This document shows positions 46,993-61,888 of a DNA stretch of 64,000 nucleotides, in pieces; position 1 is the stretch's first letter; each line of letters opens with the position of its first letter. Origin of the DNA: Gloeobacterales cyanobacterium (lineage in GTDB: Bacteria; Cyanobacteriota; Cyanobacteriia; Gloeobacterales; PMM-0068); contig JBBRSB010000014.1 in NCBI GenBank assembly GCA_038245785.1, positions 38,728 through 102,727 of the forward strand. The letters run 5' to 3'. The position numbers were made by a program, and so were the translations under genes. The notes under the pieces are model-generated. The model did not search any database, was not told the origin of the DNA, and saw nothing but the letters and a program-made list of their open reading frames with translations.

Positions 46993-47343
46993 CTAACGGC
47001 CCATCTGGTTAGGCTTGCCACAGGCATCCTTGTTCTGCTCTTGCTGGGTGACAGCCCCAGCCCCAGCTCCTACTATAGCGCCCACAGGACCTCCAATTAG
47101 TGCTCCTGTGCCAGCTCCATATAGAGCTCCTTTGGTTACATTATTGCCCTTTTCATCTTTGCCACAGGAAAGATCAGGACTAAGCGTTTTGTTAATTCCT
47201 GTATTGCTCTTTCTCTGTTCGCTTGTGGCCCTGGATTCGTACCGCTTGGATTCGGCATTTGCGGAAGGAACTGTATAAACAGATAGAGTCGTCAGCATAG
47301 CCAAAGAAGCAAAAGTTGCAGCGCACCATTTTTTCCCACTCAT
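46993..47343 (-). CDS. Secreted glycine-zipper protein
   Basis: Signal peptide; KGALYGAGTGALIGGPVGAIVGAGAGA. Confidence 0.7.
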   Translation of the reverse strand: MSGKKWCAATFASLAMLTTLSVYTVPSANAESKRYESRATSEQRKSNTGINKTLSPDLSCGKDEKGNNVTKGALYGAGTGALIGGPVGAIVGAGAGAVTQQEQNKDACGKPNQMGR

Positions 47344-47378: not shown

Positions 47379-47422
47379 ATCGTAGTCACTTTCAAAGGCA
47401 AACCCCTCTGCCTTCCGATGGA
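47379..47422 (-). promoter_or_regulatory. Stress-cluster promoter: palindromic site, N22, -10
   Basis: TCTGCC-ttcc-GATGGA at 47407-47422; TACGAT 22 nt downstream on the minus strand. Confidence 0.6.
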
Positions 47423-47605
47423 GTTCTGTAGATAAGGCTCGATTGTATGTAACCTCTACAAAATTTCTTGCAAGAAGAAAATGAGGTAGGCAAAGTTGCG
47501 GCCCATGTATCGTTTTCAGCACAATCTCTCTCTCCAGTGTGACGTCGGAAATTTCACCTCTGAGAGACACTGTTAGCAAATTCTCTTGCAGGGTAAGGAG
47601 ATGCT

Positions 47606-47875
47606 ATGCCGGAAGCCGAACACGTTGTCGCCAAGACTACGGATATCAAGGATGGACAAATGAAGTCAGTCACGGTTGGCGATACCAAGATCCTGCTCGT
47701 TCGGCTCAATGAAACGTTTTATGTCCTTGGCAGTACTTGCCCTCACTACGGCGCTCCCATGGAAGCGGGACCAACAAACCTCTGCCTTGCATGAGTTAAT
47801 GCAGCAAAATACCCTGCCCAAACCAGAGGACTTCGCGATGGCAAGGTGAACTTAGTCAGTTTATTGTCAACTTAA
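47606..47875 (+). pseudogene. Internally deleted Rieske/FAD oxidoreductase (AIF-like)
   Basis: The Rieske N-terminus (CPHYGAP) stops before the second CxxH and is joined out of frame to a reductase-like tail RDQQTSALHELMQQNTLPKPE/LRDGKVNLVSLLST*. Confidence 0.6.
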
Positions 47876-48028
47876 CTTGTCAGGAATCTCCCCTTGAGCA
47901 TCGCGAAAAGAGCGTTGCTAGAATGTTTTGATCGCAGCTAATTAAACTTGACAGTGCCTAGACGGCTCAATAATGTTTTGGATGAGTGACGGTGACGGTA
48001 TTAGTCCCACAACGAGGATAAAAAGCTA

Positions 48029-49375
48029 ATGGAAACAGCGGATGTGATTGTGATTGGCAGCGGACAGGGAGGAATCCCCCTGGCAACTGATTTTGCCAAA
48101 GCAGGACGCAAAGTTGTCATATTTGAACGAGATGCCTTAGGTGGTAGCTGTATCAATTATGGCTGTACTCCCTCGAAAGCTTTTTTAGCGGCTGCCCATG
48201 CCGCTGGTCGTGCCCGTCAAGCAAACGCATTAGGCATTCATGTCCAGGTTGAAGTAGACTTTCCAGCGGTGATGGAGCGTGTCCGCCAAGTTCGTGATCG
48301 CTTTAACCAAGGCGTTCACAAGCGGTTACAGTATGCAGGAGTACAAGTTGTATGCGCAACAGCCTCTTTTTCAGGCGAGCGCACGGTAACAGGCGGCGAT
48401 GTGACCGTTCAGGCTCCCTTGGTGTTGATCAACACAGGAACTTCTGCTTCGATCCCCAATATTCCTGGTTTGGCAGGGACTCCTTACCTGACCAATCGGA
48501 ATTTCTTTGATTTGACAGCGTTACCTCCTCGCATCCTGGTCATGGGGGCAGGATATATTGGGCTGGAATTGGGCCAGGGACTAGCCCGGTTGGGTAGTGA
48601 AACCCACCTAATTGCACGGGGCGATCGCCTTCTCGCTCAGGAAGAGCCGGAAGTCAGTGAAACGCTTCAACAAGCGTTCCAGCGAGATGGAATTCAACTT
48701 CACTTCCAGGTCAACGTCAAGGAAGTCATCCATACACAAGATGGATTTATTCTGAAACTGGACAATGGGCAGGAACTTCATGGAGAAGCCTTAATGCTTG
48801 CGATCGGACGTAAGCCAAACACGGATGCGCTGAACGTTGTTGCATCCGGTGTGGAACTAGATGAAAAAGGATTTGTCAAAATCGATAATAAATTTCAGAC
48901 AACCTGTAAGGGAATCTACGCCATTGGGGACGCGGCTAAGCAACCGGCGTTTACGCATGTGTCCTGGGAAGACTATCGTCGATTGAAGGCGATTCTAGAC
49001 GGTGAAGATCGAACGCGGGATGACCGAGTGCTGGGCTATGCAGTCTATACCGAACCTCAGGTTGGACGCGTCGGGATGACCATACAAGAAGCACAGAAGA
49101 AGGGCATCAATGCTCGCTGTGTCACCCTACCGGTGAACCAGATGGCCCGTGCCATTGAATGGGGCCATGATCTCGGCTTCTACCGGATGGTAGTTGATGC
49201 AGACACAAATAAGATTTTGGGGGCGACGCTGGTCGGTTATGAAACTGCTGAGCTAGTGCATGTATTTCTATCATTGATGGAGGCAGATGCCACCTGGCAG
49301 TTATTAGAACAATCCGTCCATATTCATCCCACCTATGGCGAGGCGTTGCCTAGTCTGGCTCGGCTACTCATGTGA
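48029..49375 (+). CDS. Pyridine nucleotide-disulfide oxidoreductase (mercuric-reductase-like, no C-terminal CC)
   Basis: GSGQGG, GGSCINYGCTPSK, GAGYIGLE, HIHPTYGE. Confidence 0.88.
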   Translation: METADVIVIGSGQGGIPLATDFAKAGRKVVIFERDALGGSCINYGCTPSKAFLAAAHAAGRARQANALGIHVQVEVDFPAVMERVRQVRDRFNQGVHKRLQYAGVQVVCATASFSGERTVTGGDVTVQAPLVLINTGTSASIPNIPGLAGTPYLTNRNFFDLTALPPRILVMGAGYIGLELGQGLARLGSETHLIARGDRLLAQEEPEVSETLQQAFQRDGIQLHFQVNVKEVIHTQDGFILKLDNGQELHGEALMLAIGRKPNTDALNVVASGVELDEKGFVKIDNKFQTTCKGIYAIGDAAKQPAFTHVSWEDYRRLKAILDGEDRTRDDRVLGYAVYTEPQVGRVGMTIQEAQKKGINARCVTLPVNQMARAIEWGHDLGFYRMVVDADTNKILGATLVGYETAELVHVFLSLMEADATWQLLEQSVHIHPTYGEALPSLARLLM

Positions 49376-49399
49376 GAGAACATGTCAGCATAACCAAAA

Positions 49400-50980
49400 T
49401 CATTTGGGCCAGGTAAATCGGAAGGTGGCTCCCTTCCCTATCTGGGACTCCAGATGAATCACACCTCCCTCTGCCTCAACGATTTTTTTGACAATAGATA
49501 GGCCGATCCCTGTACTCTCTTGTGAGTCACAGGTTTTTATGGTCTGGAAGATGGTAAAAATCTTGTCGTGGTACTCAGGGGCAATGCCAGGACCATCATC
49601 TGATATAGAAAACTCATAATACTCTGGCTGTTCTTGCACAGAAACTTTAACGCAACCATCAGGCCGATCATGGTGCTTAATCGCGTTACTAATTAGGTTG
49701 GCGAATACTTGCCCTAAGAGCAGCGGTTTGGTTTTCAGAATCGGCATTGGTGGCTCGATTTGGACCGTAAACGGAGGCAGAGGATCTAGAGAGTCAATCA
49801 CTTCTGTCAATAAATCCATGACCACGACCTTTTCTATCGCTACTTTTATCCGTCCTGCGCGGGAATATTCCAGTAGACCATCAATCATCGCGCCCATACG
49901 CTGGACGCGTGTACGCAGCAGTTGCAATTGCAGTTGATTATCAGGCGGCAGTTGGCCTTCGAGATCGGATTCAATCCACTCAGAAAGATTAGCAATGGCG
50001 CGCAGGGGAGCTTTCAAGTCATGGGAGACTACATAAACAAATTGGTCCAGTTCCTGGTTCCTTTGCTCCAAGTTGGCTGCCGATTGGGCTAAAAGCATAT
50101 TCAGTCCAGCCAATTCACGGGCGCGATCTTGGAGCTCCAATTGTGCCTGTCTACTTTCGGCTTCAATGCGCTTGCGTTCACCAATGTCTTCAATCACTGA
50201 AATAAAGTATTTCGGGGCTCCAATCGCTAAGTCAGAATGCCCTGGCCCAGCTGATTCTTGACGTACGAGGGCAACAGTTAATTTAACCCAAACGGTGAAT
50301 CCCTCTTTATGGATGTAGCGCTTTTCCATGGAATAGGTGTGAATCTTACCTGCCAGCAATTGGTTGACATACTCCAGATCGGTTTCTAGGTCGTCAGGAT
50401 GAGTAATATCTTGAAAAGTTCTTTCCAGGATTTCTTCGGAAGTGTAGCCAACAATTTCGTGGAGCTTTTGGTTGATGCATAGCCAACGACCATCTAAGCC
50501 AACATGGGCAATGCCCACCGCCGCTTGTTCAAAGGTGGCACGGAATCGCTCTTCACTTTCTTGTAATGCCTGCTCTGCCTGTTTATGCTTCGTAACATCC
50601 GTGACGATGCCCAACATTCGCACCGGATGGCCTTCTTCGTCATAGTGGAAACGGCCCAAGGCACTGATCCAGTGAATACTGACATCTGGCCAGATGATGC
50701 GGTACTGGATTGCTAATTCTTCATGAAGGTCTCTTGCTCTATGGGTAGCTTGATGGATCCATTCAAGGTCTTCCGGATGAACTCGACGCTCCCAATCCAA
50801 GTAATTACGTTCTGGAGTTCCTGGTTCGTAGCCAAAGATAGCTTCGTGGTAAGGATTCCAGAGCATTTTGTTGGTGATGAGGTCCAAATCCCACCATCCC
50901 ATTCTTGCCGCATCTAAGGCCAAGGTCAGATGCTCTGTGTTGTCGATGTTCACAGCCACAGGCTCACGAATTTGAATCAT
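49400..50980 (-). CDS. Cytoplasmic PAS-PAS histidine kinase
   Basis: Two PAS/PAC domains; VSHDLKAPLRAI H-box; NLISNAIKH, DDGPGI, TGIGLSIVKK. Confidence 0.92.
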   Translation of the reverse strand: MIQIREPVAVNIDNTEHLTLALDAARMGWWDLDLITNKMLWNPYHEAIFGYEPGTPERNYLDWERRVHPEDLEWIHQATHRARDLHEELAIQYRIIWPDVSIHWISALGRFHYDEEGHPVRMLGIVTDVTKHKQAEQALQESEERFRATFEQAAVGIAHVGLDGRWLCINQKLHEIVGYTSEEILERTFQDITHPDDLETDLEYVNQLLAGKIHTYSMEKRYIHKEGFTVWVKLTVALVRQESAGPGHSDLAIGAPKYFISVIEDIGERKRIEAESRQAQLELQDRARELAGLNMLLAQSAANLEQRNQELDQFVYVVSHDLKAPLRAIANLSEWIESDLEGQLPPDNQLQLQLLRTRVQRMGAMIDGLLEYSRAGRIKVAIEKVVVMDLLTEVIDSLDPLPPFTVQIEPPMPILKTKPLLLGQVFANLISNAIKHHDRPDGCVKVSVQEQPEYYEFSISDDGPGIAPEYHDKIFTIFQTIKTCDSQESTGIGLSIVKKIVEAEGGVIHLESQIGKGATFRFTWPK

Positions 50981-51340
50981 CTTTCATACTCTCTACTCTA
51001 CTGTTCCCTGATCTCCACTGATAAAAATCAGGGAGTAGGCTACTGCACACGAGAAGGAGACGCTTCTGCGTCCGGATGCTGTCCTGCTCTAAAATCAGTG
51101 AGTTCATACTTAGGTAGCGTAAGCCTATGCACCGAATGGCACAGCCTATTTCTATACCATAAGGCAAATTTCCTTGTAGTCTGCCTCTTTGTAACTAGTC
51201 CACCGAATAAAGCAATTTTTCTATATCTTGATTGATAATTTTTGGATGTCAATAGCAAAAAGAAGGCTTATGTACTATACTTAGCCTTCTTCTTTGCATA
51301 TGACAAAAATTGACAAAAATCGCTGAATCGTGAGCTTAGT

Positions 51341-51523
51341 TTAGTCAATAGCTTTCTTTATTTCATCCTTTGCGTCTTCTATCTTATTCTGAACTTTAGC
51401 TTCACCTTGCTTAATTTTTCCTTCAGCCTTAGCCTTAGGATTATCAGTCACGTTACCGACTGCTTCTTGGATTTTCCCTTCAATATCTTTAGCAGTCGCT
51501 TTAGCGCGATCTTTGAGGCTCAT
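51341..51523 (-). CDS. CsbD family stress protein
   Basis: DRAKATAKDIEGKIQEAVGNVTDNPK.KAEGK.KQ.EA; AGGAG RBS. Confidence 0.9.
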   Translation of the reverse strand: MSLKDRAKATAKDIEGKIQEAVGNVTDNPKAKAEGKIKQGEAKVQNKIEDAKDEIKKAID

Positions 51524-51572
51524 AAGTACTCCTTATTGCAATGTGCTTATTGCAACATATTTTACTACTGTG

Positions 51573-51616
51573 AGCGTACCGCGTTTTTTTTGCTAGCTCA
51601 TATACCCAAAGATAGA
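51573..51616 (-). promoter_or_regulatory. Stress-cluster promoter of csbD copy 1
   Basis: TATACC-caaa-GATAGA at 51601-51616; TACGCT 22 nt downstream on the minus strand. Confidence 0.65.
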
Positions 51617-51740
51617 GCTAAAACTGAGTCAGTTATGCTAATAAATAATGTTCGGAAGTAAATAGCAAAAAGAAGGCTTGGTACAATACGCAAACCTCCT
51701 TCTATGTATATAGCGAAGAGAGATTAACTGCGAACTTGGT

Positions 51741-51923
51741 CTAGTCGATGGCTTTCTTTACTTCGTCTTTTGCATCTTCGACCTTATTGCGGACCTTAGC
51801 TTCGCCTTGCTTTGCTCTTCCTTCAGCCTGATCTTTAGGATTATCAGTCACGTTACCAACCGTTTCTTGCACTTTTCCTTCAACATCTTTAGCGGTCGCT
51901 TTAGCACGATCTTTCAGGCTCAT
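51741..51923 (-). CDS. CsbD family stress protein (tandem duplicate)
   Basis: Near-identical to the adjacent copy; RBS, promoter and terminator region also duplicated. Confidence 0.9.
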   Translation of the reverse strand: MSLKDRAKATAKDVEGKVQETVGNVTDNPKDQAEGRAKQGEAKVRNKVEDAKDEVKKAID

Positions 51924-51958
51924 AAGTACTCCTTGTCGCAATATGCTCAACTAATAAG

Positions 51959-52025
51959 AGTTTATGGCGTTTTTTTTGTCCGCTCATGTACCCAATGATT
52001 GATTCTTCTTATGCCAAAAGATAGA
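51959..52025 (-). promoter_or_regulatory. Stress-cluster promoter of csbD copy 2 with two palindromic sites
   Basis: TGTACC-caat-GATTGA (51987-52002) with TAAACT 22 nt downstream; second site TATGCC-aaaa-GATAGA (52010-52025). Confidence 0.65.
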
Positions 52026-52137
52026 GCTGAAGCTAAGTAAGCCACGATACCAAACATTTTTAGATCTTATGATTAAGTCCAAATGGCAGGACTAACCTCG
52101 AAAGATTTCAAACATAGTATTACCAAAGGGGACCATA

Positions 52138-52926
52138 ATGCGCCTGACTGCTGGTTGTAAAATTTCTTTTGAGGCTAATGAGCCGATCCCCATGATTTTC
52201 ATGCTTAGACCGCGCAGTGGTCTTGGGCAGTGGATCTCGCGGGAGGAATATGTAATAGAACCGAATGTACCCGTGATTGAATATAGCGATAGTTATGGTA
52301 ATTTTTGCCAGCGGCTCGTAATACCACAAGGCTTCTTTAACCTCCAGATGAGTGTTTGCGCCGAAACAGCCGATGAGATTGACCTCCAATTTGATGCTCC
52401 CCTCGCATCTGTGCAAAACTTACCGGACAGCGTGCTGCAATTCCTCTTGCCTAGCCGCTATTGTCCTTCTGATCAAATGAACGCGCTTGCCAAACAAATT
52501 GTATCGGGTATCACACTAGGCTATGCGCAGGTTGAGGCGATCAGGAGTTGGATTCAGTTAAATGTGGAATATCGCTACGGTACCAGTGATAGTTCAACTT
52601 CAGCCATGGAAACAGCGACAAAGCGGGTAGGCGTTTGTCGAGATTTTACCCATTTGGGGATTGCCCTGTGCCGTAGCTTGAACATTCCGGCACGCATGGT
52701 GGTGGGCTATCTCTATCAACTGGAGCCCATGGATCTGCACGCTTGGTTTGAAGCTTTTGTCGGTGACCGCTGGTATACCTTTGATGCAACGCAGCAGCAG
52801 CCAAGAGGAAATCGCATTGCAATCGCCTATGGTCGAGATGCTGCTGATGTAGCGCTCACAACTCAATTTGGTCCCGCGAACCTAATCGACATGAAAGTCT
52901 GGGTTAAGGCTGATATAGCTACTTGA
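52138..52926 (+). CDS. Transglutaminase-like protein
   Basis: FLLPSRYCPSD, GVCRDFTHL, DLHAWFE, YTFDAT, GRDAADV. Confidence 0.9.
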   Translation: MRLTAGCKISFEANEPIPMIFMLRPRSGLGQWISREEYVIEPNVPVIEYSDSYGNFCQRLVIPQGFFNLQMSVCAETADEIDLQFDAPLASVQNLPDSVLQFLLPSRYCPSDQMNALAKQIVSGITLGYAQVEAIRSWIQLNVEYRYGTSDSSTSAMETATKRVGVCRDFTHLGIALCRSLNIPARMVVGYLYQLEPMDLHAWFEAFVGDRWYTFDATQQQPRGNRIAIAYGRDAADVALTTQFGPANLIDMKVWVKADIAT

Positions 52927-52990
52927 GCATTAGGCATTCGTAATTCTACTGAGATCTAAAACTATCTCTATGCCCTTTGAAAATGACAGT

Positions 52991-53034
52991 TCTTTCTTGA
53001 GACAGAGGGAAAGCCTTTGTACAAAAAATAAAGT
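52991..53034 (+). promoter_or_regulatory. Stress-cluster promoter of the general stress protein
   Basis: TCTTTC-ttga-GACAGA at 52991-53006; TAAAGT at 53029-53034 (22-nt spacer). Confidence 0.65.
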
Positions 53035-53066
53035 GTTGATGGTGCTATTAATCAAAGGATTGAACT

Positions 53067-53801
53067 ATGGCGATAAACGAATTTAAGCGTTCTGTAGGTA
53101 CATTCTCTACCAAGAGTGAAGTAGAGAGTGCACTTACGCAACTCCGCCAAGCTGGTTTCGATATGGATGATGTACACGTGCTCGTGAAGAATGAAGACAA
53201 CGAGCCTGACCAGATAGCTGGAGTTGATGTCAAGGACAAGGTTGGTAACCAGGCAGGTAAGGGTGCGGCTTCCGGAGCAGCAACCGGTGGAGCTATTGGT
53301 GGCATAACTGGTCTGCTCGTTGGTCTGGGTGCAATAGCAATTCCTGGCGTCGCTCCAGTGCTAGCATTAGGAGCTGCGGGTACGGCAGTTGCCACAGCGC
53401 TCACAGGTGGTGCCATTGGTGCAGCAGCTGGTGGGCTCGTAGGTGCGTTAGTAGGTTTGGGCATTCCGAAGGAACGGGCGGAAGTCTATGAGGGTGTTCT
53501 CCGCCAGGGCGGGTATGTAGTGATGCTTGACGGTACCCAAGAGGAACTAAATCAAGCACACGCTATTCTCCAAACTGGTAATGTCGGCAACTACGGTGTT
53601 TATGATGCACCCGCAGGTACTTATCGGGAGCGTCCCCAAAACTACATGACTACCGAAGAGCGCAGACGCAATCTAGGTCAGACTGCAAAAGGTCAAGTTC
53701 AAGAGGCATGGGGCCGGGCAACAGGCGACCCTGTAGATGAAGCGGAAGGCAGAGCCAAAAAGCAGCAGGCGGATACTGAAAGACGCACGGCTGACTATTA
53801 G
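53067..53801 (+). CDS. General stress protein (YflT-like, glycine zipper) with C-terminal CsbD-like domain
   Basis: VGTF...VESALTQLRQAGF; GAATGGAIGG..GLLVGLGAIAIPGV.PV; tail AKGQVQEAWGRATGDPVDEAEGRAKK. Confidence 0.85.
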   Translation: MAINEFKRSVGTFSTKSEVESALTQLRQAGFDMDDVHVLVKNEDNEPDQIAGVDVKDKVGNQAGKGAASGAATGGAIGGITGLLVGLGAIAIPGVAPVLALGAAGTAVATALTGGAIGAAAGGLVGALVGLGIPKERAEVYEGVLRQGGYVVMLDGTQEELNQAHAILQTGNVGNYGVYDAPAGTYRERPQNYMTTEERRRNLGQTAKGQVQEAWGRATGDPVDEAEGRAKKQQADTERRTADY

Positions 53802-53854
53802 ATGTTGTAAAGGTTCATTCCGCATCAGTAGTTCAATTTAAATTTCTGACATAG

Positions 53855-53896
53855 CTGCCAATCCCTCACTAAGAGGCTGATTGGCAGTTTTCTTTT
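53855..53896 (+). terminator. Rho-independent terminator
   Basis: CTGCCAATC-CCTC..GAGG-GATTGGCAG stem followed by TTTTCTTTT. Confidence 0.7.
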
Positions 53897-54178
53897 GTTT
53901 ATTCCAATACTCGTACGCGACTTAGGATACACACCTATTGCTCTAGCGAAGCATCTATCCCAAGGTATAAGCCAAAAGTGAGATTTTGATAGTAAAATTC
54001 CAGTCTGTACGCTCATTGATACTCGTAGAACTGAAAGGTTTAAGAGAAGTAGAAGACTACCCGTTGGCAGTGAATGTTATATGGTTAAACGCCGTGGTTG
54101 GCTATGCTGTTTATAAAGCAGAGAGATTCTGAGATCATCTCCAAACTATATTCTTGTCTTTAGGATCAGCCAGCAGCT

Positions 54179-56530
54179 ATGGAAGTACTTCGGGTTCTGC
54201 ATCTTGAAGATAGTGCACTGGACGCCGAACGGGTCGCAGCCCAACTCGCTGAAAGTGGCCTCACCTGCAAAATTTTGAGGGTACAGACTCGATCAGATTT
54301 CCTGCAGGCCCTTCAGTCGGAGAGCTTCGATTTTATCCTGTCAGATTACTCACTGTTTAGTATTGACGAGCCGAACTTTGACGGTTTGGCAGCACTCAAG
54401 CTTACTCGTAGTCTGTCTTCTGAGATTCCCTTCCTCTTTGTCACTGGTTCCCTAGGAGAAGAGCTGGCTATCGAGACCATCAAATTAGGCGCTACCGACT
54501 ATGTCTTAAAACATCGGCTGAGCCGATTGGACACAGCAGTTCTACGTGCTCTACGCAAGACCAAAGAGCGTAATGAGCACAAGCGAGCGGAAGAGGCGTT
54601 GCGCAGGAGCGAAGAGACAGCTCGCCGACAACTGGCAGAGCTTGAAGCTGTGTATGCGGCTGTTCCCGTAGGACTAGGCTTTCTGGATAAAGACTTGAGA
54701 TTCGTCCGTGTCAATGAATGTCTCGCTGAGATCAATGGGGTGCCGGTATCGGAGCATATTGGGCGAACTCTGTCAGAGGTCCTTCCTCCTGGACCTAATC
54801 AAGGCGACACCGTAGAACCGCTCTATTGGCAAGTGCTCCAGTCACGATTGCCGCTTGTAAATCACGAGGCTAAAGGCACAACCAAAGCGCAGCCGGGCAT
54901 CCAGCGAGATTGGCTGCTCAACTACTACCCGCTGCTCGATAGCGATGGCCAGGTATTGGGTCTCAATGTGATGGTGCAGGAGACCACGGAGCAGAAACGG
55001 TCAGAGGAAGCGCTCAAAAACAGCGAAGAGCGATTGAAGCTGGCGCTGGAAGTATCTCAGCTAGGCACGTGGTACCGGGATCTTGAAAAGAATGCCATTA
55101 TTTGGGACAAGCAGTGTAAGGCCCTATTTGGACTGCCGCCAGAAACGCAAATGACCTACGAAGTCTTCTCGGAAGCACTTCATCCAGAAGACCGTGATCG
55201 TGTGCATCAGGCCCTGAACCAGTCCATTCAAAATCGGACAAGATACAACGCCGAATATCGTACTTTATGGCCCGATGGCACCATCCGCTGGATTATTTCA
55301 CTAGGACGTTGTACCTATGACACTGAAGGCAAAGCCGTTCGCATGATGGGGGTAGCGTTCGACATCACAGAGCGCAAACGATCCGAAGAAGCGCTCAAAA
55401 ACGGCGAAGAGCGATTGAAGTTAGCACTAGAAGCATCCCAGCTGGGTATGTGGTATTGGGATCTTGAAAATGATGTCCTCAGTTGGGACAAACAGTGCAA
55501 GGCCCTATTTGGACTGTCGCCAGAAACGCAAGTGACCTATGCAGTCTTCTCGAAAGCACTTTATCCAGAGGACCGTGAACGTACGCATCAAGCAGTCAGC
55601 CAGTCCATCCATGATCGGATAAGATACAACACCGAATATCGAACCTTATGGCCCGATGGCACCATCCGCTGGATTACTTCACTGGGACGTTGTACCTATG
55701 ACGATGCAGGTAGAGCTATTCGGATGATGGGAGTAGCGCTCGATATCACGGAGCGCAAACGATCTGAAGAAGCACTGCTCGAAAGTGAAGAGCGCTATCG
55801 CCAGCGCGCAGAGGAGTTGGACCGACTTACCTACGAACTCACCAGAGCCACGGACTACCTTGAACGGCGTAATTCTGAATTAGACCAATTCGCCTATGCT
55901 GTTTCCCACGACCTCAAGGCTCCATTACGGGCGATTAACAACCTTTCGACGTGGATTGAAGAGGATCTAGAGGACAGGCTTGATGAGGAAACAGCTGGTC
56001 AGATGGCCCTGCTACGCAAACGGGTTTGTCGTATGGAGCAGATGATCGATGGCCTTTTAGACTACTCGCGCATAGGACGGGTAGCCATGATTTCGGAAAA
56101 AGTGGCAGTCAAGGAATTACTGACAGAGGTGATTGATGCCCTTTCTCCTCCACCTGACTTTACGATCGAGCTGTCCCCTAACCTTCCTGTTTTGGTAACC
56201 GAACGGCTATGGCTCCAACAGGTATTCAGCAATCTCATCGGCAACGCTATCAAACATCATGATCGTTTAGAAGGTCATGTCTGGGTGGATGTTCAAGACC
56301 AGGGTAACTTTTACCAATTTGCGGTGAGGGATGATGGTCCAGGCATTGAGCCGGCCTACCACCACAAGGTATTCGTTATTTTCCAGACATTGCAGGCGCG
56401 TGATAAGACCGAGAGTACGGGCATTGGTCTATCACTGGTCAAAAGCATCGTGGAGAACAAAGGGGGAAACGTGCAGATAGAATCAGCCCGTGACCGAGGA
56501 ACGACCTTCCTTTTTAGCTGGCCAAAGTGA
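54179..56530 (+). CDS. Hybrid histidine kinase REC-PAS-PAS-PAS-HisKA-HATPase
   Basis: LHLEDS..ILSDY..GATDYVLK receiver; PAS_4-like domain plus two duplicated PAS_3; SHDLKAPLRAI. Confidence 0.92.
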   Translation: MEVLRVLHLEDSALDAERVAAQLAESGLTCKILRVQTRSDFLQALQSESFDFILSDYSLFSIDEPNFDGLAALKLTRSLSSEIPFLFVTGSLGEELAIETIKLGATDYVLKHRLSRLDTAVLRALRKTKERNEHKRAEEALRRSEETARRQLAELEAVYAAVPVGLGFLDKDLRFVRVNECLAEINGVPVSEHIGRTLSEVLPPGPNQGDTVEPLYWQVLQSRLPLVNHEAKGTTKAQPGIQRDWLLNYYPLLDSDGQVLGLNVMVQETTEQKRSEEALKNSEERLKLALEVSQLGTWYRDLEKNAIIWDKQCKALFGLPPETQMTYEVFSEALHPEDRDRVHQALNQSIQNRTRYNAEYRTLWPDGTIRWIISLGRCTYDTEGKAVRMMGVAFDITERKRSEEALKNGEERLKLALEASQLGMWYWDLENDVLSWDKQCKALFGLSPETQVTYAVFSKALYPEDRERTHQAVSQSIHDRIRYNTEYRTLWPDGTIRWITSLGRCTYDDAGRAIRMMGVALDITERKRSEEALLESEERYRQRAEELDRLTYELTRATDYLERRNSELDQFAYAVSHDLKAPLRAINNLSTWIEEDLEDRLDEETAGQMALLRKRVCRMEQMIDGLLDYSRIGRVAMISEKVAVKELLTEVIDALSPPPDFTIELSPNLPVLVTERLWLQQVFSNLIGNAIKHHDRLEGHVWVDVQDQGNFYQFAVRDDGPGIEPAYHHKVFVIFQTLQARDKTESTGIGLSLVKSIVENKGGNVQIESARDRGTTFLFSWPK

Positions 56531-56553
56531 ATGAGTTGAATAGCCTAACTTTT

Positions 56554-56886
56554 GAAACCCCTCAGTCCCTCCGGGACAGCTCCCCACCCTTCGGGAAGGC
56601 TTCGCCTACGAAGGGGAGCCTGGGTCTTTTGAGGGGAGAAAGCCGCAGGTGCGCCAGAAAGGAGGGAGAGGCCCAAGTCTACAATGCTCACCGCACCGTA
56701 CGCTTGGAAAGTGTAGGCATGAGAGTGGTCCGTTGTAGCCATGAGGGTATGATCTGCCTAGGGCTTTGGCAGCGTCTGTAGCCAAATCCAAACCATCCTT
56801 CTGCTCCCAGAATAGGCTCGCTCCCCTTCGTAGGCGAAGCCTTCCCGAAGGGTGGGGAGCTGTCCCGGAGGGACTGAGGGGTTTTC
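56554..56886. repeat. REPIN-like element: two ~65-bp inverted REP arms around a conserved spacer
   Basis: GAAACCCCTCAGTCCCTCCGGGACAGCTCCCC...AAGGGGAGC at the left end and its reverse complement at the right end; homologous to 63606-63867. Confidence 0.85.
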
Positions 56887-57407
56887 TAATGGCTGTGACC
56901 TACTCCAGAGTCAGGATGTCCTGCCATCATATGCATGCGTGCGAGCAGTTTCTGACCTGCCTCCCGGCGTACTCCCGGCACCAGTTCAAGAGGACCACGC
57001 ACCAGATCATCATTGACATTGCGAGCTGTCAAGCCTTCGACCACGGCCTGATCCAGGTTGGCATCTTCCGAGAGCGCTGAGTAAACCACTCGCCCAATCC
57101 CAGCATAGGACATGGCCGAGAGGCACATCAGGCAGGGCTCCAACGTGACATAGACACATAAATCCGCTTTTTGCTCATCGTTCATCTCCGCAATCTGCTT
57201 TGCTACGGTGCGCAAAAGAGACATTTCCGCATGAGCCGTAATATCTCTGGTTTCCTCGTACATGTTGTGAACAAGTGCCATGACATGGCCCCGCCAAGTC
57301 ATCATGGCCCCGACCCCAGCTTTACCCTGATCCAGAGCAGCGTTGGCCTCCGCAATAACTTTATCGATGTACTCGTAATCCTGCGGCGTAGGAGATGTTG
57401 TGCTCAT
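56886..57407 (-). CDS. Nucleoside/nucleotide deaminase (TadA/CDA fold)
   Basis: AHAE and TLEPCLMC zinc motifs. Confidence 0.85.
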   Translation of the reverse strand: MSTTSPTPQDYEYIDKVIAEANAALDQGKAGVGAMMTWRGHVMALVHNMYEETRDITAHAEMSLLRTVAKQIAEMNDEQKADLCVYVTLEPCLMCLSAMSYAGIGRVVYSALSEDANLDQAVVEGLTARNVNDDLVRGPLELVPGVRREAGQKLLARMHMMAGHPDSGVGHSH

Positions 57408-57429
57408 AAAATTTTCCATTGATAGGCTA

Positions 57430-59079
57430 TTACAAAACCAGAACTTTCGCTTCGTATTCTGGTAGGTCAAGGACCAAGGTGTTGCCAGAAACCTCAACGT
57501 CATAGTTGCCGCTCCATTCGTGCCAGGTTCCATCGGCTGGTATATGGGGAATAGTGTAGTCTTTTAAGTAGTTGCCTGATAGGTTGGCAATCACCACCAC
57601 GCGGGAGCCTTCATCATTCCAGCGGGTATAAGCCAGAACTCGGTCATCAGCCTGTTCGTGGAAGAATTCGATATTTTCGGTGTACAAGGCATGGTTATTT
57701 TTTCGCAGGAATATGAGCCCCCGGTAATAATCATGCAAGCCCATGTTCTTATCATTTTCCAGTAGCGTCCAATCGATCTTGCTCTGTTCTGGGGTCTTAG
57801 CCTTATACTCTGCGAATTCCTCACCCATCCAGATCATGGGCACGCCCATGGCCGTCATCAGGAGAGCGGCTCCCAGTTTGGCTCGCTTGAAAGCTGCTTC
57901 ATCTAGGACTCCTCGTTCGCCCAGTTCATACATCAGGTGATTGTGATCATGGTTGGTGAGATAGTTGACCACGTTAGTGGTTCCCATATATCCTTCACGT
58001 TTGGCGTCCAGAGCACTTTTAAGCCGTTCAAGGTCAAACTGATCGTTGCACAGGTGATCAATCATCGCGCTGTAGAAGTTTTCATGCCATGCTCCATCCA
58101 TCGGTCCATCGGCATTAGTGATGGCTGGCTCCTGAGGAATGTGTTCGGCGATGTTATAAAAGGGTTTCATGCCCGCCGTCTTCTTGGCTTCCTGAACGAC
58201 CCAGTGCATGAAGTCATAGTTGCTGAGCTGGCGAGCAGCGTCATAGCGAATGCCATCCGTGTGATATTCCTCTATCCAGAAGCGCACCACATCTCCGATA
58301 AACCTACGGGCTGGATAGGTGTCAAACTTCTCATCATAGAACTCGTAGTTGAATTCTGGACCCCAGTTGTTATCGGGATCTTTGGGAGAATGGTGATACC
58401 AATAGTCATGATCGATTTGGGTGAGTGGGCTCTGAGACTCAGAGTGATTATAGATACCGTCCATCAGTACCCGGATGCCACGACCGTGGCACTCGTCAAT
58501 CAGTGCTTTCAGTTCTTCCGTGGTGCCGTAACTAGATTCTGTCGCAAAAAAATAGCGGGGGTTATATCCCCAGCTCTGGTCGCCAGGATATTCCTTAACA
58601 GGCATCAATTCGATACAGTTGATGCCTAACTCCACTAGATAATCGAGTTTTTCAACAACATGTTTGTATTTGCCACGGGCATAGGGGTCGTCTTCACCAC
58701 CCGAGAAGTCACCAACGTGCAGTTCATAGATAACCAACTCGTGGTCCGCAGGCAAAGGCTTGTCGTCATTCTTCCAAACATAGGTGTCAACGATACGCTC
58801 ACCGTCTTTAATGCGCATATTGCAGTTCTGCGTAGCGTCGTCAATATCCGTGGCATAGGGGTCATTCACTTCAACCCACTGATCAGGTTCAAAGAACCAA
58901 CTCTTTGACTGGACCTTGAACTTATAGGCATATAGCCCGTCTTTGAGTTCTACTTTGGTGCGGAAGAAGCCGTCCTTGCCTTTTTCCAAAGGAATTTCTT
59001 CCCAGTTAGAGAAAGAACCCACCAACGCTGCACTTTTGTTATAAGGGGCCCACAGTTTGAACTCGATCGACGCAACCAT
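57430..59079 (-). CDS. GH13 alpha-amylase family glycoside hydrolase with CBM48 (TreZ/GlgB-like)
   Basis: FKLWAP, IYELHVGDF, IELMPV, SWGYNP, YHTDGIRYDA, IAEH, TNHD. Confidence 0.9.
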   Translation of the reverse strand: MVASIEFKLWAPYNKSAALVGSFSNWEEIPLEKGKDGFFRTKVELKDGLYAYKFKVQSKSWFFEPDQWVEVNDPYATDIDDATQNCNMRIKDGERIVDTYVWKNDDKPLPADHELVIYELHVGDFSGGEDDPYARGKYKHVVEKLDYLVELGINCIELMPVKEYPGDQSWGYNPRYFFATESSYGTTEELKALIDECHGRGIRVLMDGIYNHSESQSPLTQIDHDYWYHHSPKDPDNNWGPEFNYEFYDEKFDTYPARRFIGDVVRFWIEEYHTDGIRYDAARQLSNYDFMHWVVQEAKKTAGMKPFYNIAEHIPQEPAITNADGPMDGAWHENFYSAMIDHLCNDQFDLERLKSALDAKREGYMGTTNVVNYLTNHDHNHLMYELGERGVLDEAAFKRAKLGAALLMTAMGVPMIWMGEEFAEYKAKTPEQSKIDWTLLENDKNMGLHDYYRGLIFLRKNNHALYTENIEFFHEQADDRVLAYTRWNDEGSRVVVIANLSGNYLKDYTIPHIPADGTWHEWSGNYDVEVSGNTLVLDLPEYEAKVLVL

Positions 59080-59126
59080 TACCCTAAACCTCCAATAACG
59101 ATGCTGACGGGGTAGTCCCTAAGGTC

Positions 59127-59170
59127 AATGTATAGCGTTGAAGCGCGAGCTGCCTCTATCTGGGGAAAGA
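59127..59170 (-). promoter_or_regulatory. Stress-cluster promoter of the GH13-deaminase operon
   Basis: TCTATC-tggg-GAAAGA at 59155-59170; TACATT 22 nt downstream on the minus strand. Confidence 0.65.
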
Positions 59171-59342
59171 TTTCTGGAGATTTTCAGCTTTTTTAGAAAT
59201 TGCTCACCTAATCACAGTCTTTTCGACTAGACCTCAGTAACTAATGCTCAAAGAGCAGATTCTCCTATGCAATTGCAGACACAGGAAAAAACGTCAGCAA
59301 GAGGCTTGCACCCCTAACTGACGGCACTAAATTAACAGCTTA

Positions 59343-60617
59343 CTAATTACTCAGAGCTTCTTGAGGTTGAGGGGCACTATCCGGCTTCAGTGCTGCCATT
59401 CCATGCTCAGGTGCTCGTAGCTCCTCTTCCGCGATCACTGGCTCTTTTGTATAGACCGAACCTAGTAGAATATTAAGAACACCACCTTCATCGGCTTGCC
59501 GAATTGCCTGGTGCGTAATCAATTCACCTACGTTGAGAATTATCTTATCTTGTGGGTCAAGAATGACGCGATTCACCGGACGACCGATTGACTGCTCGAT
59601 CCGCTGTTCTTTAATCACACGAGCGCTGCGCCCTTTAAATTCTTCAGTTTTTGCTTGCAGCGATCGCCAAAAGGTACCAAGATTTTCTTGAACAGCAGTG
59701 GTTTGATTTTGCATTTTCCCCTTCGTCTCTGCCCAGCTATCACTGGCGCTTGCAAACGCTGCCTCAGAAGGAGCCAAACCTACTGAACTGAGTAAGGTAG
59801 CTTCTTTGCCATATGTCTGAGCACGAGTAATCACAATATCTGTGACGATTTGCCCTGGAGCAGCAATCACAGCTCCCTCGTCTGACCGCACCATTTGAGT
59901 CGCTCGACGACCTTTTGCCTGCTCGACCGAGTTTCGCGCCGCTAAACCGTTTGTAGAGTGCTGAATGCTATCCGTCGCGGTTTGAGTTGTGCTCCTGAGT
60001 CTGCTGCCTGCTGTCTCTGCTGTTTCTTGCAGCTTGTGCTGTGCATTTTCCGCAGATTCTTGTAGCTTGTCGCCCGTTGCCTGCATCGCTCCTTTTATAC
60101 CACCGACTTGCTCTTCCATTAGGCGAGCAGTTGCAGGAGGCACAAAGGCAACGTCCTCTCCAATCTTGAGCGTTTCGGGAGCCGGAACAAACGACCGCCC
60201 CGAGTACGCATCCGCAAACAGTCCACCAGAAGCTTCATAGCCCTCGATCGCTCCGGTCACCTCATCAAAGAACAAGTCTGACATCGTGCCCAAATCAAGA
60301 CCATCAGTAGTAAGAATTTTTGTGCCGCTGAGAATATTATTGTGATGCAGAATTTCTTTAATTTCAGGCATCTGGTCAGCTGTCACAACTGACTCACTGG
60401 AGTGAACGACGATCGCATCCGACCCGATTACCTGCACCTCTTGCAAAGGCAATACCTTCGCGCTCCGAAAAAAACCTTTTTCTCGCACTAAAAAGCCGAG
60501 TAGCCGATTGCGCTTCTGATCGAAAATTAAGTCTTGGACATGCTCGATTCGTTTGCCAGTGTCATAGGTGACGATCACTTTACCAATGACATCATTACCT
60601 TTACGCATTGTTTTCAC
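59343..60617 (-). CDS. PRC-barrel domain protein
   Basis: Two PRC barrels (IGKVIVTYDTGKRIEHVQDLIFD; GTKILTTDGLDLGTMSDLFFD) plus LEA-like Q/E/A-rich helices. Confidence 0.85.
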   Translation of the reverse strand: MKTMRKGNDVIGKVIVTYDTGKRIEHVQDLIFDQKRNRLLGFLVREKGFFRSAKVLPLQEVQVIGSDAIVVHSSESVVTADQMPEIKEILHHNNILSGTKILTTDGLDLGTMSDLFFDEVTGAIEGYEASGGLFADAYSGRSFVPAPETLKIGEDVAFVPPATARLMEEQVGGIKGAMQATGDKLQESAENAQHKLQETAETAGSRLRSTTQTATDSIQHSTNGLAARNSVEQAKGRRATQMVRSDEGAVIAAPGQIVTDIVITRAQTYGKEATLLSSVGLAPSEAAFASASDSWAETKGKMQNQTTAVQENLGTFWRSLQAKTEEFKGRSARVIKEQRIEQSIGRPVNRVILDPQDKIILNVGELITHQAIRQADEGGVLNILLGSVYTKEPVIAEEELRAPEHGMAALKPDSAPQPQEALSN

Positions 60618-60634
60618 CTTCAGGTTTGCTGTAA

Positions 60635-60832
60635 CTAAAGCTGTTTATTAAGAATGACTTGGGCATCTAAAGTCTGACTTAGTAATGGTCTATATTGTCC
60701 CTCCAGACCAAACCCAGGAATTAGATCAATAACTCCGAAATATTCGAGCAGAACAGCTGAGAGTGCAACCACTAAGAGCAATATGATCAGATTAGCTACT
60801 GGGTCAGGGCGCCGCCCTACGAGTCTCGGCAT
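60635..60832 (-). CDS. Small membrane protein
   Basis: One TM helix; LEYFGVIDLIPGFG; AAGGA upstream. Confidence 0.6.
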   Translation of the reverse strand: MPRLVGRRPDPVANLIILLLVVALSAVLLEYFGVIDLIPGFGLEGQYRPLLSQTLDAQVILNKQL

Positions 60833-60861
60833 GTCTTTTTCCTTTTGATCTATGCTGACTC

Positions 60862-60939
60862 ACAATAAAATTTACTTGCTTAGAATTCGCCCTCCTTAAG
60901 AGGCATCTTGCTCACTTGTTTCATCTATCAATAGATGGA
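60862..60939 (-). promoter_or_regulatory. Stress-cluster promoter with two palindromic sites
   Basis: TCTATC-aata-GATGGA (60924-60939) and CCCTCC-ttaa-GAGGCA (60890-60905); TATTGT 22 nt after the latter. Confidence 0.6.
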
Positions 60940-61615: not shown

Positions 61616-61888
61616 ATGCATGTTCAGCCTTCTAACACCTACCAAGCCACGGAAACCCTCTCGGAGAGAGAGCTTCAAGTCCTAGAGCTGGTAGCGAAAG
61701 GACTGACCAATGAACAGATTGCCAAAAATTTGGACATCAGTAAGCGAACTGTGGACAACCATATCAGCAATATTTTGAATAAGACCAATACCGATAATCG
61801 GGTAGCCCTAGTGCGCTGGGCGCTCCAGTGGGGTAAAGTTTGCTTGGATGAAGTAAACTGCTGCACGATTCAAGATAAGGGAATTTAG
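61616..61888 (+). CDS. pedR: Small LuxR-type redox-responsive regulator PedR
   Basis: LSERELQVLELVAKGLTN..IA..L.ISKRTVDNHISNIL.KT...NRVALVRWALQWGKVCLDEVNCC with the three C-terminal Cys. Confidence 0.88.
   Translation: MHVQPSNTYQATETLSERELQVLELVAKGLTNEQIAKNLDISKRTVDNHISNILNKTNTDNRVALVRWALQWGKVCLDEVNCCTIQDKGI

Follow-up and report, generated by a model that had tools for sequence, protein, structure and literature searches.

A dyad with fixed spacing to the -10 box as a putative activator site of a cyanobacterial stress regulon

We analysed a stretch of 64,000 nt from the genome of a Gloeobacterales cyanobacterium (NCBI GenBank assembly GCA_038245785.1, contig JBBRSB010000014.1, positions 38,728 to 102,727 of the forward strand), which is called the window below. 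A cluster of stress-type genes lies between positions 47,379 and 60,939 of the window, and an imperfect 16-bp palindrome, TCTATC-N4-GATAGA (the dyad), recurs in the DNA between them. Our analysis suggested that this dyad, where it stands 22-23 nt upstream of a TAN3T hexamer, is very probably a real and conserved promoter element that serves as the site of an activator. Gene order was taken from Pfam profile matches and a listing of open reading frames (ORFs). The genes next to the dyads are as follows.

46993-47343, - strand: Gly-zipper-like gene, 116 aa (Gly-zipper_YMGG profile, below the Pfam cut-off)
51341-51523, - strand: csbD1 (CsbD, Pfam E-value 4.4e-16)
51741-51923/51950, - strand: csbD2 (CsbD, Pfam E-value 4.1e-17)
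53067-53801, + strand: YflT-CsbD gene (Pfam YflT and CsbD)
54179-56530, + strand: hybrid REC-PAS-histidine kinase gene (Pfam)
56886-57533: deaminase gene (ORF), which comes after the GH13 gene in the same unit
57430-59079, - strand: GH13/CBM48 gene
59343-60617, - strand: PRC-barrel gene
60635-60832, - strand: 65-aa membrane gene, ahead of the PRC-barrel gene

An earlier note on this DNA had listed nine 16-mers as copies of the dyad, and all nine were found where it had placed them. They are given below with the scores of a position weight matrix (PWM), which was refined from the sites that have TAN3T at an offset of 22 nt (geometry-positive sites). The -10 boxes are predicted.

47407-47422, - strand: TCCATCGGAAGGCAGA (read on the - strand), promoter of the Gly-zipper gene; motif-only score 17.1, combined score 23.2
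47379-47384, - strand: predicted -10 box TACGAT, 22 nt from site 47407, read from the sequence
51601-51616, - strand: TCTATCTTTGGGTATA, promoter of csbD1; -10 box TACGCT at 51573-51578, offset 22; motif score 16.3
51987-52002, - strand: TCAATCATTGGGTACA, promoter-proximal site of csbD2; -10 box TAAACT at 51959-51964, offset 22; motif score 13.5
52010-52025, - strand: TCTATCTTTTGGCATA, upstream tandem site of csbD2, 23 bp further upstream
52991-53006, + strand: TCTTTCTTGAGACAGA, YflT-CsbD gene; -10 box TAAAGT at 53029-53034, offset 22; motif score 18.8
53954-53969, + strand: TCTATCCCAAGGTATA; TAAAAT at 53993-53998, 23 nt away; motif score 13.8 (+) and 17.9 (-)
59155-59170, - strand: TCTTTCCCCAGATAGA, GH13 gene; -10 box TACATT at 59127-59132, offset 22; motif score 18.8
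60924-60939, strand undefined: dyad match upstream of the 65-aa membrane gene and the PRC-barrel gene; motif scores 16.8 and 15.7
60890-60905, strand undefined: non-match, 7 mismatches out of 12; no PWM score of at least 9; TATTGT 22 nt off

Mismatches to TCTATC-N4-GATAGA were counted by hand: one at 59155 and 60924, two at 51601, 52991 and 53954, three at 47407, 51987 and 52010, and seven at 60890, which is therefore not a match. Eight of the nine claimed dyads thus stood and the ninth was lost. Five sites (47407, 51601, 51987, 52991 and 59155) fit T(C/A)TnnC-N4-G(A/G)(T/C)AGA and are followed by TAN3T exactly 22 nt away on the gene side. The note had counted six such pairs; the sixth hexamer, TATTGT, belongs to the non-match at 60890. 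Its proposal of a shared activator-type site with class II-like geometry was supported for the Gly-zipper, both csbD, the YflT-CsbD and the GH13(-deaminase) genes, at each of which an offset-22 site was found.

The two csbD promoters had been read as duplicates, and the alignment of both loci showed genes and promoters alike to be duplicates (84% column identity). Compared with csbD1, the csbD2 promoter (window 51951-52030) has a 23-bp insertion, which duplicates part of the box and yields the tandem sites. Since site 52010 was created by this insertion, it is a tandem site of csbD2 and not a promoter of the neighbouring transglutaminase-like gene; no TAN3T was present at 22-23 nt from it when both directions were checked. 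At site 53954, TAAAAT was found 23 nt away, as described before. TAN3T stands at an offset of 23 on the + strand and 24 on the - strand, and the site lies 181 nt ahead of the hybrid histidine kinase gene, which is a possible member of the regulon. Site 60924 has no TAN3T at 20-25 nt, and in another register it forms a perfect palindrome, CATCTAT-N2-ATAGATG. The small gene of about 65 aa behind it, which starts with MPRLVGK, precedes the PRC-barrel gene in 16 of 17 orthologous loci (L052-L068; window 59343-60832), so that both genes form an operon. The PRC-barrel unit had been named as a regulon member, a claim that was not supported: beside the missing -10 box at 60924, only 2 of 17 orthologous operon upstreams carried a site with a score of at least 12 (see below). 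In the window, five promoter sites are confirmed (equal to four independent promoters). Site 53954 is a plausible further one, 52010 is a tandem site, 60924 matches the dyad but lacks the -10 box, and 60890 is spurious.

The number of sites and their geometry behaved differently across the source genome. Sites with at most three mismatches numbered 2681 in 5,008,344 bases, which gives about 7.3 expected per 13.56 kb, and 8 were seen. Among intergenic sites, the N4 spacing was not enriched at two mismatches (43 sites; 33-59 at other spacings) or at three mismatches (477; 339-495 at others), and it was enriched only at one mismatch or fewer (11 versus 1-8). A count of loose matches by itself is chance-like and uninformative. 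The shorter pattern TCT..C-N4-G..AGA was found 29 times in intergenic DNA versus 12-22 times at other spacings, and coding DNA had no excess. In a blind dyad analysis of all trimer pairs, the NtcA pattern GTA-N8-TAC occurred 204 times versus 117 expected, and TCT-N10-AGA occurred 339 times versus 298.6 expected (p 0.012), which was non-significant after multiple testing. Enrichment of the motif in intergenic DNA, a check that the note had proposed, was therefore absent at two to three mismatches and present at one mismatch or fewer and for the offset-22 geometry.

The geometry was examined for 521 intergenic sites with at most three mismatches, read in 1042 directions. TAN3T had a single peak, with 42 occurrences at offset 22; the mean was 19.6, and the other offsets from 10 to 35 gave 10-27. 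In the stricter set of 52 intergenic sites with at most two mismatches, it occurred 10 times at offset 22 versus a mean of 2.0. A converse half-site test was also run on sites picked solely for having the proximal half G[AG][TC]AGA together with TAN3T. Among these, T.T..C, the distal half, was present in 8 of 55 cases at offset 22 and in 5 of 35 at offset 23, and in 0-2 of 30-58 cases at each of the offsets 18-21 and 24-26. Among the 42 geometry-positive sites, T1 (38 sites), C6 (34), G11 (31) and A16 (37) were among the best conserved columns, and the proximal half of the dyad was better conserved than the distal half. Only 3 of the 42 were NtcA-like TGTA..TACA sites. With a transcription start about 7 nt after the predicted -10 box, the fixed gap of 22-23 nt would place the centre of the site near -42.

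The predicted regulon was then collected with the refined PWM. The source genome had 74 intergenic sites with a combined score of at least 14, and they were clustered: five lie in the window, eight on contig C3 (4.5-17.4 kb; C-numbers denote contigs of the source genome) and others on C28 and C35. Pfam annotation covered 33 of 54 target ORFs, obviously spurious ORFs being left out. The targets include a helical carotenoid protein (Carot_N), DJ-1/PfpI, hemerythrin, flavodoxin, MscS, large catalase, a PRC+DUF2382 protein, two SDR proteins, Dps/ferritin, an aldo-keto reductase, OsmC, BrkB/YihY, pyruvate kinase, an NTRC-like thioredoxin reductase, sucrose synthase and a response regulator with REC and GerE domains (C3:4661-5383). 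Boxes with TAN3T at 22 nt stand before the GH13 gene, the avaK-like gene C3:9239-10171 (PRC+DUF2382), the sucrose synthase gene C26:7561-9987 (score 15.1) and the regulator gene, whose promoter bears TATTTCTAAAGATAGA-22 nt-TACAAT.

Contig C3:4500-17400 is a second stress island, denser than the first, in which eight promoters bear the box. It contains the NarL/LiaR-like regulator, the helical carotenoid protein, Dps, the avaK-like PRC-DUF2382 protein, an SDR protein and small unknown proteins.

The C3 regulator has Response_reg and GerE domains by Pfam. Its best full-length match in the PDB was 5hev (VraR, E-value 2.4e-38), and its DNA-binding domain aligned to the LiaR domain of E. faecalis (4wsz, E-value 3.6e-18; also 4wt0). 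The stretch TVKTHV of the recognition helix is common to both proteins, including the equivalents of Lys-177 and Thr-178. LiaR is described as recognising T(X)4C(X)4G(X)4A, where Lys-177 makes contact with guanines at both the C and the G position (PMC4482077). The dyad shares the frame of the LiaR/VraR operators, a 16-bp dyad T-N4-C-N4-G-N4-A with T1, C6, G11 and A16. Two further likenesses are autoregulation, as predicted for the C3 regulator, and tandem or extended sites, as at csbD2. The systems differ in that the LiaR sites described lie at about -80 to -120 before cell-envelope stress genes of Firmicutes (PMC4482077), whereas the position here is fixed and class II-like, and in that Lys-174 of LiaR is Gly in the C3 regulator. 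Taken together, these features point to the dyad as the probable binding site of the C3 regulator, an autoregulated LiaR/VraR-like response regulator of the NarL family (OrrA-type). The earlier note had placed the regulator outside the window, and the location of the candidate on C3 agrees with this.

OrrA (Alr3768) is a NarL/LuxR-type regulator needed in Anabaena PCC 7120 for the salt and dehydration induction of several hundred genes (Kimura et al. 2022, PMC9804601), and the parts of the literature covered name it as the master regulator of how Anabaena and N. flagelliforme respond to salt and dehydration (PMC9804601; PMC13131328). The GH13-like alpha-glucanotransferase gene lti2 (all0875) was induced 127-fold by dehydration in the wild type versus 2.3-fold in the orrA disruptant; orrA itself was induced 31.6-fold versus 4.4-fold; and susA, susB, katA, katB, dps and the avaK genes (PRC-barrel plus DUF2382) were OrrA-dependent (PMC9804601). 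The OrrA of N. flagelliforme is reported to bind the promoters of mysA and susB, and its partner is a dehydration-induced histidine kinase. Matched by gene kind, the regulon predicted here has the same GH13/lti2-type, avaK (PRC+DUF2382), sucrose synthase, catalase and Dps members and a self-induced regulator. The source genome differs in belonging to a lineage seemingly distant from Anabaena, and the product names CsbD, YflT and Gly-zipper were absent from Table S1 of the Anabaena study when names only were compared (PMC9804601). A literature search, which covered the OrrA binding studies in part, found neither an OrrA recognition sequence nor the dyad as a motif string. An autoregulated NarL-type regulator whose predicted regulon mirrors the published OrrA regulon fits better than a Crp/Fnr protein. 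We lean slightly towards a wider reading, in which the dyad would be an unpublished 'OrrA box', shared from early-branching thylakoid-less cyanobacteria to Nostocales, through which one LiaR-like class II activator governs the whole desiccation, osmotic and general-stress regulon including its own gene.

Conservation in other cyanobacteria was measured with a PWM trained only on the source genome, using the best site within 400 nt upstream and a cut-off score of 12; the orthologue sets include close kin (for example L016-L018 and L092/L094-L096). A score of at least 12 was reached by 14 of 29 upstreams of the regulator orthologues, 9 of 19 of GH13 and 13 of 29 of the avaK-like PRC-DUF2382 genes. 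The controls gave 1 of 29 for upstreams of Crp homologues and 8 of 220 for locus ends. Among 77 non-duplicate named loci, 22 passed. The search for the motif before orthologous genes, also proposed earlier, was therefore positive for GH13 and negative for the PRC-barrel operon. In the avaK-like loci the site lies about 72-92 nt before the ATG, and TAN3T stood exactly at 22 nt in 13 of the 23 loci whose site scored at least 7. The GH13 loci had TAN3T at 22 nt in 5 of 18 and at 23 nt in 2.

Of the 150 cyanobacterial genomes sampled, 89 had the regulator family, often as two close copies; it was missing in small-genome families. All 36 genomes with an avaK-like gene had the regulator (36/36 versus 89/150 overall), and in some genomes (e.g. 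G143, G132 and G118) avaK-like or PRC-barrel genes lie a few kb or less from it. Among 14 control genomes, DUF2382 was found only in B. subtilis and D. radiodurans. A strict pattern, TCTNNC-N4-GRYAGA-N22/23-TANNNT, was counted against its reversed form in the 150 genomes and gave 324 versus 99 matches. The split was 277 versus 69 in the 81 regulator-bearing genomes and 33 versus 22 in the 61 genomes without the regulator, a contrast confounded because the regulator-lacking genomes are mostly small and mutually related; eight ambiguous genomes, kept apart, gave 14 versus 8.

Besides this confounding, several points weigh against the dyad as the box of an OrrA-type regulator. PWM sites outnumbered shifted decoys by 59 to 12-13 at a score of at least 16, a figure that is inflated because the PWM was trained on those same sites. 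Ten of 19 GH13 and 16 of 29 avaK-like upstreams fell below the cut-off of 12. Regulator promoters elsewhere had no TAN3T peak at 22 (1 of 26; 5 at offset 24); many of them carry CATAAT at 22, and those of Nostocales carry TATCTT at 23. The paralogue C9:93996-94163 also has GTVKTHV in its helix. The OrrA-type label of the C3 regulator is tentative and is drawn from the likeness of the regulons; because many genomes carry two close copies, the C3 regulator could be the counterpart of OrrA, of an Srr1-like paralogue or of the ancestor of both. NfSrr1, a second OrrA-like regulator of N. flagelliforme and a NarL/LuxR-family stress response regulator like the candidate, has the proposed motif ATMAGTAARCYYAAT, which is unlike the dyad. 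Rre1 is also a stress regulator of this family; its proposed motif GTNCGGK differs from the dyad, and its regulon is made up of chaperones, while the targets predicted here include none of them.

A different GerE/LuxR protein as the binder of the box is an unlikely explanation, though one that has some evidence behind it. The source genome has 10 GerE-type helix-turn-helix genes, and besides the C9 paralogue with its shared helix and an Srr1-like regulator, a stand-alone 90-aa GerE/LuxR-type protein (61616-61888, + strand; Pfam) is encoded beside the cluster; we take its size and type to recall the redox-responsive PedR of Synechocystis. Moreover, a box in the promoter of the C3 gene makes it a target and is no proof that it is the regulator. 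On the other hand, the C3 regulator is the only one of them with the box in front of its own gene, where it is conserved across genomes. This gene also lies inside the densest island of targets, and its presence tracks the excess of the strict pattern. The 90-aa protein has a different helix, RTVDNHISNIL, and the NfSrr1 motif does not resemble the dyad. The C3 regulator, rather than a paralogue, is the likely binder.

The earlier note had preferred a Crp/Fnr-family activator, with NarL/LuxR regulators also on its list. Such a protein would be a relative of NtcA with altered specificity that binds TCTA-N8-TAGA at about -42 in class II position. NtcA-activated promoters carry GTA-N8-TAC about 22 nt before TAN3T, with the site at about -42 replacing the -35 element. 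The promoters described here resemble them in geometry, with a palindrome in the -35 place and a TAN3T -10 box, and differ in the bases (TCTnnC/GnnAGA) and in a binder that is likely of another family. The source genome encodes seven paralogues of one Crp family, and TCTACCTTTTGATAGA (C44:18872-18887) stands 89 nt ahead of one of these genes, C44:18205-18783. However, the other six paralogues lack the box, and the C44 box is not kept in homologues. The 29 homologue upstreams hold TCT-N10-AGA three times, which is the background rate, and one of them scored at least 12. All seven paralogues retain the NtcA-like helix RVT[IV]TR (RITITR in one), which presumably, going by the structures of CRP and NtcA, would read G and not C at the second position of the site. 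The conserved columns also follow the T1/C6/G11/A16 frame of LiaR, and NtcA-like sites were rare. We therefore consider a Crp/Fnr binder quite improbable. Autoregulation of the Crp family through the box was considered and rejected, with the upstreams of this family behaving as background.

It is very improbable that an alternative sigma factor uses the proximal half GATAGA as a -35-like element, with the palindrome being incidental. The better conservation of the proximal half and its fixed distance from the -10 box would suit such an element, but the distal T.T..C was enriched at the dyad position only when a -10 box stood at 22-23 nt, and this box is of the ordinary TAN3T type. Sigma-70-type promoters have a gap of about 17 nt, and the longer gap of 22 nt counts against this explanation as well. 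That AT-rich intergenic DNA merely matches a loose palindrome by chance is scarcely credible, since the near-random counts (8 versus about 7.3 in the cluster, no intergenic enrichment at two to three mismatches, and the small excess of TCT-N10-AGA) are set against the offset-22 peak, the half-site test, the cross-species conservation relative to controls and the strict-pattern excess over the reversed control in the 150 genomes.

With the C3 regulator as the binder, the following mechanism can be proposed. Osmotic, salt or drying stress would lead a sensor kinase to phosphorylate the regulator. One of the two kinases of the cluster is a candidate sensor, because the hybrid kinase may belong to the regulon through site 53954. 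Taking the place of a -35 element, a dimer of the regulator would sit on the dyad near -42 and bring RNA polymerase to the TAN3T -10 box. The tandem sites of csbD2, 23 bp apart, could hold two dimers. Positive autoregulation of the regulator gene would amplify the response. In the window, the Gly-zipper gene, both csbD genes, the YflT-CsbD gene and the GH13-deaminase unit would be switched on, perhaps together with the hybrid histidine kinase. Elsewhere the targets would include the regulator's own gene, avaK-like PRC-DUF2382, Dps, catalase, DJ-1, the SDR proteins, OsmC, MscS and sucrose synthase.

In the literature covered, the OrrA regulon has so far been drawn only from knock-out transcriptomes, where direct effects are mixed with indirect ones. 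If the proposal is true, a box at a fixed promoter position would separate the direct targets of OrrA from the indirect ones, and the sequence of any cyanobacterial genome could show its direct drought regulon. Regulons could also be predicted in uncultured and desert cyanobacteria. It would also offer a compact stress-inducible promoter part for engineering, and the circuit would predate the split of the earliest cyanobacterial lineages. The CsbD, YflT and Gly-zipper 'general stress' proteins are known from the SigB regulon of Bacillus; in cyanobacteria they would be under a two-component activator.

The remaining genes of the window around the cluster are listed below.

Position not numbered: guaA, first in the gene order
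47606-47794: Rieske ORF, 62 aa, matching only positions 3-55 of 88 of the Rieske [2Fe-2S] profile
After the Rieske ORF: pyridine-nucleotide disulphide oxidoreductase gene
49400-50980, - strand: PAS histidine kinase gene
Between csbD2 and the YflT-CsbD gene: transglutaminase-like gene

XssQ-type AAGTTnnAC boxes occurred 8 times in the window versus 7.9 expected, with none in the promoters of the cluster. The Rieske ORF, upstream of the oxidoreductase gene, may be truncated or frameshifted. In one genus (L055, L058, L063 and L064), the upstreams of the PRC-barrel operon share a conserved palindrome, CATAGAGAA-N9-TTCTCTATG, with arms of up to 9 bp. It lies 27-53 nt before the ATG of the small membrane gene, does not resemble the dyad and may be an operator or a hairpin of the 5' untranslated region. 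In the window, a pair of 86-nt inverted repeats (56555-56640 and 56799-56884; 90% complementary, arms 158 nt apart) separates the 3' end of the hybrid kinase gene from that of the deaminase gene; it resembles a miniature inverted-repeat transposable element or a long hairpin.

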